A stretch of 54,794 nucleotides of DNA from an uncultured bacterium (GTDB lineage: Bacteria; Ratteibacteria; UBA8468; B48-G9; JAFGKM01): NCBI GenBank assembly GCA_964408175.1, contig CAYOYL010000057.1:1-54794 (forward strand). Direction: 5' to 3'. Every line of letters starts with the position of its first letter. The stretch's first letter is position 1. The notes under the pieces were generated by a model. The model was not told the origin of the DNA. It ran no database searches and saw only the letters and a list, made by a program, of their open reading frames with translations. Positions 1-14,408 of this stretch are shown here, in pieces. A program made the translations under genes and the position numbers.

Positions 1-168
1 TTCGCCTCCCCCTTTGAGGGGGGAGGCAGACACTCTGTTTCTACGTAGAGTGCGGTGGGGGTGAAGGATAGATACCCCCACCTTACTTCCTCCCCCTCAA
101 GGGTGCTAACACGAAGAATAATGAGTGTTGTATAGCACGAAGGGCGAGTCGGTGAGCCCGTTGACCGA
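1..168. repeat. Dispersed non-coding repeat, copy A (the window starts inside it)
   Basis: nt 1-68 match the reverse complement of 13926-13993 almost base for base, with one small indel. Patchy similarity continues to ~168 versus ~13819. Contains the hairpin GCCTCCCCC-TTTGA-GGGGGGAGGC at 4-27. Confidence 0.8.
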
Positions 169-13334: not shown

Positions 13335-13355
13335 CAAAGCGGGGTACGGGAATCG
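13335..13355 (-). repeat. Duplicated 3' end of tRNA-Gly (21 nt, identical to 13463-13483)
   Basis: CAAAGCGGGGTACGGGAATCG occurs at both positions. Only the copy at 13463-13483 belongs to a complete tRNA. Confidence 0.9.
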
Positions 13356-13465
13356 GCGCCCTCGCATCCCGATACTGCTCGGGTCGGCCACCCGCTGAGA
13401 TTGCTCTTACTCATCGCAATCTCTGACTTCGCTCCCTTCGATTCCCTATTCAAAGAAGAGAACAA

Positions 13466-13536
13466 AGCGGGGTACGGGAATCGAACCCGTATAATCAACT
13501 TGGAAGGCTGATGTTTTACCATTAAACCAACCCCGC
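13466..13536 (-). tRNA. tRNA-Gly (anticodon TCC)
   Basis: 71 nt cloverleaf folded by hand: acceptor GCGGGGT/ACCCCGC, D-arm GTTT-AATGGTA-AAAC, anticodon arm TCAGC-CTTCCAA-GTTGA, T-arm ACGGG-TTCGATT-CCCGT, discriminator T. No encoded CCA. Confidence 0.9.
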
Positions 13537-13545
13537 AAGTAAAGC

Positions 13546-13606
13546 AAGTTTTACTACCTTTGCCAACCAATGAACTCAATCACTGCTAAGTGGGCAGGGG
13601 AGGATT
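13546..13606 (-). repeat. 61 bp direct repeat, copy 1 (last 16 nt of tRNA-Tyr plus 45 nt of its downstream flank)
   Basis: Identical to 14051-14111 by direct comparison. This copy is not attached to a tRNA body. Confidence 0.9.
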
Positions 13607-14050
13607 GTGCTACTGAGAAACGCTACGCACGAACTCCTCATCTTTTTTAATGATGATTGCTAACCTTTTTTCTCAAGGAAGCATTCATCGTCGGTACGGC
13701 TCCTCCGCACACAGTGCTTCGGTAGGCCAGCCGCCTATTCTTTGCTCCTGCTCGTCGCAACTCATAAACAGGCTCTAGCCCTGTGGGCTCGATTTCAATC
13801 CATCGAGCCTTACGGGCGTCGGTCAACGGGCTCACCTTCTCGCCCTCCGTGCTATACAGTGCTCGATAAATTCACCCCCTCATTTTATCCTCCCCCCTTG
13901 AGGGGGAGGAAGTAAGGTGGGGGGCATCCTTCACCCCCACCGCACTCTAATAGAAACAGAGTGTCTGCCTCCCCCCTCAAAGGGGGAGGCGAACAAGGTG
14001 AAACTCATTCGCACCAGCACCAATTCGAATCCTGACCTACCAGTTCAGAA
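13607..14050. repeat. 444 bp non-coding insert between the two 61 bp direct repeats, built from dispersed repeat modules
   Basis: 13819-13993 is the inverted counterpart of window nt 1-168. It contains hairpins at 13888-13910 and 13968-13991, and a ~75 nt module related to the insert behind tRNA-Gly (13356-13462). No credible ORF. Confidence 0.75.
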
Positions 14051-14111
14051 AAGTTTTACTACCTTTGCCAACCAATGAACTCAATCACTGCTAAGTGGGC
14101 AGGGGAGGATT
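14051..14111 (-). repeat. 61 bp direct repeat, copy 2 (overlaps the genuine tRNA-Tyr 3' end)
   Basis: Identical to 13546-13606. Confidence 0.9.
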
Positions 14112-14178
14112 CGAACCTCCGTAGGCGTTAGCCAACGACTTTACAGGCCGTCCCCTTTGGCCGCTCGGGTACCTACCC
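14096..14178 (-). tRNA. tRNA-Tyr (anticodon GTA), long variable arm
   Basis: GGGTAGG-TA-CCCG-AGCGGCCAAA-GGGG-ACGGC-CTGTAAA-GTCGT-TGGCTAACGCCTAC-GGAGG-TTCGAAT-CCTCC-CCTGCCC-A. The architecture closely parallels bacterial type II tRNA-Tyr. Confidence 0.9.
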
Positions 14179-14408
14179 AGTATGAAATGGAAGCCCGTCC
14201 CGCCGCAAGAATTGTATCCTTTGAGACCCTCAAGGTAATGTGGGTACCTTCTCTGACGGCTTCGACTTTTCGCTCAAGGCGAACCTGTCGGCCCCATCAG
14301 AACTTGGTTCCCTAACTAATAGTGTTGGCTCAAGGATAATTAATCCCCACGCACGGAACAGGCTGATTATATTTTACCCTTTTTATAAAAAAAAGTAAAA
14401 TACTATTT

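Follow-up and report, generated by a model that had tools for sequence, protein, structure and literature searches.

The window analysed here is a stretch of 54,794 nucleotides (nt) of contig CAYOYL010000057.1, with which it shares its numbering. The host, an uncultured bacterium of the GTDB phylum Ratteibacteria, is represented by a metagenome-assembled genome (MAG) of 2.36 Mb (281 contigs, 85% complete). In the region of interest, the minus strand carries, in this order, genes for 6S RNA and tRNA-Tyr(GTA), an insert of 444 nt, the gene for tRNA-Gly(TCC), a second insert of 107 nt and, after a further ~125 nt, a trigger-factor-like gene. Both tRNA genes, identified by ARAGORN, are intact (tRNA-Tyr, 14095..14178, 54.7 bits with the Rfam tRNA model; tRNA-Gly, 13466..13536, 71.7 bits). 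Each is trailed by an insert lying between perfect direct repeats that start within the tRNA T-loop: a repeat of 61 nt (13546–13606 and 14051–14111) brackets the 444 nt (13607–14050), and a repeat of 21 nt (13335–13355 and 13463–13483) brackets the 107 nt (13356–13462). This layout, including the lack of open reading frames (ORFs) in the inserts, had been described in an earlier note on this DNA, and all of it was recovered; an ORF check detected no credible ORF or gene debris in 13356–13462 or 13607–14050. The content of both inserts consists entirely of repeat-family modules, and the evidence set out below supports well the view that both are copies of a phylum-wide family of gene-less, structured elements of ~100 nt residing at tRNA genes. 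Two features absent from the earlier note, an arm complementary to the target tRNA and a covarying core folded as a three-way junction, make the inserts different from classic integrase scars.

The 107-nt insert is a single plain unit, the parts of which can be followed along the minus strand. The first copy of the 21-nt repeat (13463..13483, 100% identity) comprises tRNA-Gly from C56 to its 3′ end plus the trinucleotide TTG. It is followed by a stretch (13435..13462) made up of a family-A leader, TTCTCTTCTTTGAATA (13462..13447), an anti-T arm, GGGAATCGAA (13446..13437), and a junction dinucleotide, GG; comparison of the 10-nt arm with tRNA-Gly revealed that it is the exact reverse complement of TTCGATTCCC in the T-loop/T-stem. 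The family-A core (13355..13434; 116.8 bits and E = 1e-31 with covariance model R1) consists of the joiner GAGCGAAG, hairpin P1, the joiner AGCGGGTGG and an irregular hairpin, P2/P3, that contains tandem G.A pairs; covariation supports its folding as a three-way junction, and it terminates in GGCGCC. The second copy of the repeat (13335..13355), found by repeat search, is a spare tRNA-Gly 3′ end, and fold analysis showed that the junction is closed by a helix, P0, between the initial 8 nt of this copy and the anti-T arm.

The same order of parts characterizes units in general: a trailer, a leader, an anti-T arm, two variable nucleotides, a core of ~80 nt and a copy of the tRNA from C56 to the 3′ end. 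The trailer is 0–5 nt long, and in family B its place is taken by an element-borne leader of ~60 nt. The leader is pyrimidine-rich, with the consensus TCTTCTTTGAA, and the core runs from GAGCGAAG to GGCGCC. The anti-T arm, 10–13 nt in length, reproduces as a reverse complement the stretch from T54 to about N65 of the resident tRNA and differs accordingly from tRNA to tRNA (GGGAATCGAA at Gly-TCC, GGGGGATTTGAA at Leu-GAG, TAGGACTCGAA at Asn). Repeat measurements taken on 84 unique first units revealed that the direct repeat begins at C56 in 75 units, has a length peak at 18–22 nt and ends between −1 and +4 nt from the tRNA 3′ end in 47. Longer repeats (up to 52 nt among the 84) include the start of a truncated second unit, as does the 61-nt repeat of the window. 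The joints are fixed, with the anti-T arm ending at T54 and the spare copy starting at C56, and the resident tRNA is left intact. The perfect part of P0, formed by the anti-T arm and the spare T-arm strand, mostly spans 8–10 bp and never more than 13 bp; therefore, P0 stops near the boundary between the T-stem and the acceptor.

The fold was analysed in 59 diverse family-A units, no two of which are more than 86% identical. In these, the core is a three-way junction of the closing helix P0, the P1 hairpin and the irregular P2/P3 hairpin, the latter with a conserved tandem G.A/A.G pair. Paired cells amount to 90.8%, compared with 75.4% in shuffled alignments, and none of 500 shuffles reached the observed value. 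Double-sided changes were seen in 19 of 26 pairs and in 250 cells, against 80 in the shuffles, and when partners were slid by 1–3 columns only 34–46% remained paired. The stem of P1 changes wholly between subfamilies (GAGATTGC/GCAATCTC, TTGGCTCC/GGAGCCAT and TCCGATGC/GCATCGGA), and 27 positions, mostly in the purine-rich joiners, are invariant among the 59 units, including those of GAGCGAAG and GGCCGACC. The core fold is under selection. It may act either as RNA or as single-stranded DNA; of the two strands, the tRNA-sense one is favoured by the purine joiners and by the conservation of the G.A pairs. A search against Rfam 15 returned only the 6S RNA and the two tRNAs above thresholds in the region, and nothing credible on the cores even at E ≤ 10. 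The cores of the hammerhead and other known ribozymes, box C/D and the K-turn were set aside as well, since joiner lengths and sequences misfit when compared by eye with those motifs.

Within the host genome, the 107-nt insert has more than 12 relatives. The search for further copies of the shared module, suggested in the earlier note, was performed with a profile built from 11 own-genome cores, that of family B included, which matches both window inserts. It found 15 cores, all located immediately downstream of, and on the same strand as, a tRNA gene or tRNA-like 3′ end, which excludes a chance association; two of them (contigs C193 and C110) trail tRNA-like 3′ ends not called by ARAGORN. The covariance model R1, built from family-A units only, has 14 matches in this genome and reaches the family-B core weakly (15.6 bits, E = 0.03). 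Every aligned own-genome copy ends in a copy of the 3′ end of its own tRNA. The cores of the two window inserts are 65% identical when aligned (54 of 83 positions), close to the module of ~75 nt and roughly 70% identity that had been noticed by eye.

Inspection of the 230 nt behind all 38 tRNAs called by ARAGORN showed that 19 of these genes carry a unit of families A–D: family A is found at Gly-TCC, Lys, Gly-GCC, Glu-CTC, Leu-TAG (twice), Leu-GAG, Asn, Ser-CGA and Gln-TTG, family B at Trp, Tyr, Val-TAC and Val-GAC, family C at Ser-GCT, His and Gly-CCC, and family D at Pro-CGG (twice), where the units stand in tandem (C80, C222). At two more host-genome tRNAs, other inserts lie between tRNA-end repeats; like those of family D, they look unrelated. 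An insert of ~190 nt behind tRNA-Glu TTC (C200; L207 in the sister species G002) duplicates the acceptor strand and trailer only, and one of 130 nt behind tRNA-Ala CGC (C148; L197 in G002) duplicates the whole T-arm. Several element families thus appear to use tRNA ends in this genome. Over all loci collected, 117 of 196 core matches have a tRNA on the same strand no more than 120 nt away; the others are mostly later units of arrays or stand at locus ends. The same core occurs at more than 20 different tRNA species, each copy with its own arms.

The 444-nt insert is a nested composite, in which one unit later gained an extra module, a dispersed repeat and a T-loop-seeking module, Z. The first copy of the 61-nt repeat (14051..14111, 100% identity) spans the final 17 nt of tRNA-Tyr, which start in the T-loop, and the 44 nt with which a family-B leader opens. 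Sequence comparison places the rest of the leader at 14050..14034 and the 10-nt anti-T arm AGGATTCGAA, the reverse complement of the tRNA-Tyr T-loop and the 3′ strand of its T-stem, at 14033..14024 (together 14024..14050). The extra module C, which belongs to family C (GGTGCTGGTGCGA...CACAGGGCTAGA, 13772..14023), was recognized by blastn against the Val-GAC element of G002 and the own contigs C21, C3 and C162, and is split by a nested copy of the CCTCCCCC/GGGGGAGG repeat (about 14013..13865, from dispersed-repeat matches). The family-B core (GAGCCTGTTTATGAGTTGCGACGAG...GCGGAGGAGCC, 13697..13776; nhmmer E = 4e-11) is homologous to the family-A core. Module Z (~90 nt, GTACCGACGATGAATGC...GTAGCAC, 13607..13696) was delimited by comparison with the G002 ortholog and locus L053: it is inserted exactly at the core/tRNA-copy junction GCC^GAATCC, a T-loop mimic, it is missing from the G002 ortholog, and in L053 a T-loop resembling that of tRNA-Gly harbours a Z-like sequence. 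The second copy of the repeat (13546..13606, found by repeat search) contains the displaced 3′ part of tRNA-Tyr and the start of a truncated second unit. The tRNA-Tyr ortholog in G002 is a plain unit without nested parts, its core joined directly to the tRNA-Tyr copy.

These results revise the reading of the long repeat. The earlier note had taken it as the tRNA 3′ part plus native downstream flank. The first half of this holds, but the supposed flank of 44 nt is an element leader, 86% identical to the leader behind tRNA-Trp (contig C40). The repeat therefore combines the tRNA 3′ part with the opening stretch of a second unit that is truncated, and the spacer originally separating tRNA-Tyr from tRNA-Gly was shorter than the ~54 nt proposed. 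The observation that the larger insert bears a dispersed repeat also found at the window start was borne out (82.7% identity over 179 nt against window positions 1–168). This hairpin repeat, CCTCCCCC...GGGGGAGG, is a separate and very abundant family: dozens of copies exist, many of which stand at the ends of contigs. Copies are nested in the tRNA-Tyr unit and in units on contigs C162 and C3, and the family is probably a main cause of assembly fragmentation.

Searches with model R1 covered 65 genomes from 18 genera of the host GTDB phylum and detected units in 56 of the genomes and 17 of the genera, at 1–39 copies per genome. In GenBank, these MAGs are labelled Ca. Ratteibacteria, Ca. Omnitrophota or candidate division TA06, all of which fall into the same GTDB phylum. 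Among small genomes labelled “Planctomycetia” or “Omnitrophota”, a few have weak, divergent matches. A scan of 596 Gb with a 23-base gapped pattern also gave hits in large genomes of Planctomycetota, Dehalococcoidales, Elusimicrobia and Hyphomonadaceae. A wide spread across phyla was in part discarded, as R1 found no match in the five such genomes checked; these pattern hits are thus chance matches, and pattern scans alone are unsafe for claims about distribution.

Comparison with relatives showed that the units are insertions, with empty sites and turnover of occupancy. Synteny of tRNA-Gly(TCC) and the trigger factor gene is kept in 12 relatives of the same family or order, most of which have tRNA-Tyr just upstream. 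The site behind tRNA-Gly(TCC) is empty in all 12. That behind tRNA-Tyr is filled in G020 alone, by a divergent homolog whose repeat measures 39 nt and whose anti-T arm measures 13 nt. The sister species G002 is 96% identical to the host genome over the tRNA-Tyr/6S region. Four sites filled in the host genome (Gly-GCC, His, Leu-GAG and Glu-CTC) are empty in G002, and at these sites what follows the spare tRNA end in the host genome matches the trailer seen in the G002 allele without a unit. The tRNA-Gly(GCC) site is readable in five genus members, being empty in G002, G003, G005 and G008 and filled in the host genome only; the unit there is a recent gain. Asn, Gly-CCC, Gly-TCC, Ser-CGA, Trp and Val-GAC are filled in both the host genome and G002, with different subfamilies, leaders or repeat lengths. 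At tRNA-Asn, where the T-loop reads TTCGAGT in one and TTCGAAT in the other, both the arm and the spare copy follow the difference. Tandem arrays also exist; in G027, for example, tRNA-Val is trailed by about six units.

Related units at different tRNAs carry local sequence. The nearest relative of the Gly-GCC unit (93%) lies at tRNA-Ala(GGC), a tRNA with the same T-arm, and has a different acceptor strand in both copies of the tRNA end. Thus, the duplication is derived from the target, and Campbell insertion of an element-borne tRNA end was rejected for these units. Nearly identical cores (97–99%) are commonly found at different tRNAs with different arms and leaders. Orthologous Gly-TCC units (G000, G002, G005) are mosaics that share the 3′ half of the core and differ in the 5′ half, which is direct evidence for the exchange of cores by gene conversion.

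We consider it somewhat more probable than any other explanation (probability about 0.55) that the family is a non-autonomous DNA insertion element which targets the T-loop and is moved by machinery acting in trans. From the arrangement of the copies we infer a step of insertion at the DNA level, aimed at the T-loop, which would leave a target duplication of 18–22 bp from C56 to the tRNA 3′ end. When the element is present as folded single-stranded DNA or RNA, its anti-T arm would pair with the duplicated T-arm strand, so that the closing helix would be a duplex copy of the target that displays the core, and the folded core together with this helix would be recognized by the trans-acting machinery. 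Candidates for the latter are a housekeeping recombination or replication enzyme and a factor residing on transient phage or plasmid DNA. Since the duplicated end recreates the target, tandem arrays could arise by re-insertion, or else by unequal crossing-over; recombination between the direct repeats would remove units precisely, and gene conversion would shuffle cores among loci. Ordinary homologous recombination might also carry the element into empty alleles, because it is bracketed by tRNA sequence conserved across species. The element is probably co-transcribed with its tRNA. The suggestion of the earlier note that the inserts are miniature non-autonomous elements of tRNA 3′ ends therefore stands as regards the existence of a family, its link to tRNAs, the start at C56 and the empty sites in relatives. 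Its further proposal of mobilization in trans by a cognate integrase found no support, as the occurrence of integrases, Y1 transposases and reverse transcriptases does not co-vary with that of the elements.

The search for mobilizing machinery covered the presence or absence of RVT_1, Phage_integrase and Y1_Tnp in trans, and the neighbourhood of the elements. Clustering of 1459 ORFs around 110 loci yielded housekeeping families only, with no recurring transposase and no related autonomous insertion sequence. RVT_1 was found in 4 of 41 relatives and in neither the host genome nor most of the element-rich genomes, and target-primed reverse transcription, attractive in its geometry, was dropped for want of reverse transcriptases. 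The same distribution counts against repeats that depend on a retroelement, such as SINE-like sequences, retrozymes, group II intron derivatives and retrons. Nearly all genomes have just two Xer-like tyrosine recombinases. Integrases of the island type adjoin some host-genome tRNAs (C252, C174, C90), but the type also occurs in element-free relatives; the hunt for a cognate integrase elsewhere, proposed in the earlier note, thus ended with integrase content that does not follow the elements. The Y1 transposase PF01797 is present in 38 of 65 genomes and missing from G027 (39 copies), G029 (28 copies), G005 and G007. Autonomous versions, sought as large inserts between distant tRNA-end copies, were not found in the host genome. 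All of the genomes compared are MAGs, in which very divergent reverse transcriptases could escape detection, and gene absences are therefore weak evidence.

Several observations weigh against an insertion element. No mobilizing enzyme (reverse transcriptase, integrase or Y1 transposase) tracks the elements by presence and absence. The model does not account for the match of the arm to each new tRNA: of 121 nearest neighbours by core, only 4 have the 10-nt T-arm in common. Core-less leaders with anti-T arms at tRNA-Met and tRNA-Pro are kept between species. The invariant unpaired bases and the retention throughout the phylum would also suit an RNA useful to the host. Finally, G.U pairs are not favoured over A.C (45 against 44 in P0, and 36 against 21 in P1), which leaves the fold compatible with RNA as well as with single-stranded DNA.

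The explanation that survives best beside the insertion element, possible though in our estimate clearly less probable, is that the units are tRNA-trailer RNAs with a host function. The three-way junction would be co-transcribed with the tRNA and freed by tRNA 3′ processing, with the closing helix serving as a switch, an insulator or a protein handle; roles might include tRNA 3′-end maturation, quality control or that of a decoy, and the units would multiply by local duplication and gene conversion and not by transposition. This would account for the strong compensatory covariation alongside 27 invariant positions, most of them unpaired, for the retention of units in 56 of 65 genomes of the phylum and for the failure of neighbour clustering and of the RVT_1, integrase and Y1 profiles to turn up a mobilizing enzyme. 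The anti-T arm can moreover pair with the T-arm of the tRNA itself or with the spare copy, in the manner of an attenuator. Units always lie on the tRNA strand, 0–5 nt (family A) or ~60 nt (family B) behind the tRNA, and the scan found no promoter or terminator of their own. In the window, neither kind of signal lies between the tRNAs and the inserts, the sole promoter-like site on the strand being upstream of 6S. This site probably heads a transcription unit running through both tRNAs and both inserts, whose co-transcription with the tRNAs is likely for that reason. The 6S RNA gene (14188..14367, minus strand; Rfam RF00013, 94.1 bits) ends 9 nt upstream of tRNA-Tyr, with the promoter-like site (14399–14371) just before it, and a single transcription unit may comprise 6S, both tRNAs and trigger factor. 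The order of tRNA-Tyr, tRNA-Gly and trigger factor is kept across the taxonomic order.

The solo arms are of particular relevance to a function in the host. A leader with an anti-T arm and neither core nor spare end is found at tRNA-Met (C46:5005-5040), with an ortholog in G002 (L189), and at tRNA-Pro(TGG) in G002 (L193). The arm at tRNA-Met, kept between species, is followed by a T-run (…TCTTTGAAAAGGGATTTGAACC TTTTTATATT). Such an arm could be a terminator-like hairpin that uses the T-arm of the tRNA itself, or else the first step or a relic of a unit; the solo arms at tRNA-Met and tRNA-Pro hint at a host function or a two-step origin. On the other side, the corresponding tRNAs of many relatives lack a unit, and sister species are not filled at the same set of sites. 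Perfect repeats reaching into trailer or leader, arrays of up to six units, nested insertions and truncated units have a selfish and recent look; one and the same tRNA can host barely related core families, depending on the lineage; and G.U pairs are not favoured over A.C. The two explanations are not exclusive.

In some MAGs, an extra upstream copy of a tRNA (Val or Ser) holds the core in its T-loop, with the intact same tRNA next door. The order in these variants (L063:1836-2309, L093:4573-5299, L031:170-521 and L018/L019) is tRNA 5′ part, a hairpin (CTGAAATCC-loop-GGATTTCAG), core and tRNA 3′ part. A tRNA intron, whether of group I or of the archaeal bulge-helix-bulge type, was rejected: both window tRNAs are intact upstream of their units, and the exons of the variants are without T54–T55, which splicing could not restore. 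The variants look like units that have lost the first acceptor strand, and gene callers could mistake them for T-loop introns or broken duplicates.

A more far-reaching proposal, which we regard as doubtful, is that the unit is a self-addressed module free of protein genes. Its RNA or single-stranded DNA arms would pair with both strands of the T-arm, joining would be left to a ubiquitous host enzyme or to chemistry of the core, and the arms would be copied from the target, so that the family would represent a general and undescribed mode of DNA mobility based on the universal T-arm. Guide RNAs of mobile elements (the bridge RNA of IS110/IS1111, the omega RNA of TnpB/IscB and the pairing of exon- and intron-binding sites in group II introns) likewise have a structured scaffold flanked by short target-matching segments; bridge RNAs address both target strands, and the arms of the units match both. 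In contrast to guide RNAs, no recombinase, nuclease or reverse transcriptase gene is attached to the units or correlated with them, the sense arm is a genomic target duplication and not a programmed loop, and close core relatives rarely share arms. For this last reason, an arm acting as a heritable guide that restricts jumps to tRNAs with the same T-arm is unsupported and was set aside (the 4 shared of 121 compare with a background of 0.6%). The arms would match either through gene conversion of cores between loci or by being written from the target at each insertion.

It is improbable, more so than a self-addressed module, that the units are by-products of replication or repair without dedicated enzyme or function. 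In that case, the palindromic T-arm of the heavily transcribed tRNA genes would provoke template switching or fold-back synthesis, and the core of a neighbouring locus would be copied along with two pieces of the local T-arm, one inverted and one direct. Several details agree with such an origin, namely the end of the inverted copy at the T-stem boundary, the variable dinucleotide between arm and core, as at template-switch joints, the local tRNA letters in both arms even where cores are nearly identical, and the lack of an enzyme correlate among RVT_1, integrases and Y1. However, it leaves unexplained the conservation of core sequence and fold throughout the phylum, joints at the same nucleotide in 75 of 84 units and the single architecture common to unrelated core families; multi-step switches would also be expected to be rare and messy, and not to occur at half of the tRNA genes.

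Repeats extending from the T-loop to the tRNA 3′ end are the classic signature of T-loop-class integrases, such as that of mycobacteriophage Ms6. Together with the island-type integrases beside other tRNAs of the host genome (C252, C174, C90), this signature would suit remnants of two integrase-borne islands or prophages, that is, attL/attR scars or a “mini-CIME” (from cis-mobilizable element, CIME) with the interior deleted. The reading is largely refuted, and we hold it to be very unlikely. Both inserts are members of a conserved, multi-copy family that has a fold of its own, and they contain no ORF or gene debris, so that the extreme decay of two islands, considered in the earlier note, does not describe them. 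Moreover, the same core is present at more than 20 tRNA species with arms proper to each, both tRNA-end copies are local in related units at different tRNAs, unlike in Campbell insertion, and integrase content does not track the elements. With T-loop-class integrative elements (Ms6, tycheposons, integrase-less CIMEs), the units share the T-loop junction, an intact tRNA, a displaced 3′ copy and tandem arrays. They differ in being 100 nt and not kilobases long, in having neither integrase nor any other gene, in being multi-copy at more than 20 tRNA species in one genome with an inverted target copy and a three-way-junction core, and in the local origin of both tRNA-end copies and the independence from integrase content noted above. 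In the host genome, tyrosine integrase genes (365–385 aa) stand next to tRNA-Leu(TAG) and tRNA-Ser(TGA) (C252:1137-1607, C174:617-1084 and C90:573-1040). The tRNA-Leu(TAG) locus is present on two near-duplicate contigs, with one unit carrying a nested insertion, and at these loci a classical integrative element may share the tRNA with a mini-element. An assembly artefact, through chimera or collapsed repeats in a MAG that is fragmented (281 contigs) and rich in repeats, has a negligible chance of being correct, since dozens of genomes, assembled independently in different studies, show this architecture at orthologous and further tRNAs, and sister species hold orthologous units at both tRNAs with species-specific differences.

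Other short mobile sequences offer partial parallels. Like repetitive extragenic palindromic (REP) sequences and REPINs, which depend on RAYT proteins (Y1/HUH), and like miniature inverted-repeat transposable elements (MITEs), the units are short, gene-less, hairpin-forming, multi-copy and non-autonomous, with a fold kept as the target of the machinery. Unlike these, they are found only at tRNA 3′ ends and not scattered between genes. From MITEs they differ further in that their outer inverted arms vary with the target and match the local T-arm, where MITEs have constant terminal repeats, and in that the duplication is 18–22 bp long and anchored at C56 of the tRNA, and is not of short fixed length at varied sites; from REP/REPIN, in that Y1 transposases are missing from the most element-rich genomes. 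Integron attC sites and the attP of the CTX phage, acted on by XerCD, are alike in that a single strand folds and inverted segments rebuild a duplex site; they also illustrate that an element-encoded enzyme is not needed when host recombinases act. In the units, by contrast, the rebuilt duplex copies the tRNA T-arm and differs with each copy, and there is no dif-like or attC-type signature.

Two further sequence features were observed near units or tRNA genes. About 75 nt behind the Gly-GCC unit, C72:15640-15680 holds an inverted tRNA 3′ fragment (GGTGGTACGGGATTCGAACC) and a T9 run, followed by the promoter region of tRNA-Thr. A dispersed repeat, GTCATTGCGAG...GCGGCAATC, stands in tandem behind tRNA-Phe (C221) and also beside the Gly-TCC unit in G005 (L162).

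Full-text literature searches found no description of such an element family, which is thus apparently undescribed. We rate it as lying outside the described kinds, from each of which it departs in a defining feature, on the basis of genomes that are all MAGs and with a mechanism that we infer. The units are unannotated, break assemblies and risk being read as integration scars, tRNA pseudogenes or T-loop introns. If they are mobile, an element that encodes no protein reaches half of the tRNA genes of a genome and leaves the tRNAs unharmed, using as its address the most conserved hairpin in biology; the mechanism would then be new to mobile-DNA biology and potentially a compact, sequence-addressed insertion system. 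If they are host RNAs, they would constitute a layer of tRNA gene expression, specific to isoacceptors, that has gone unrecognized throughout a candidate phylum.

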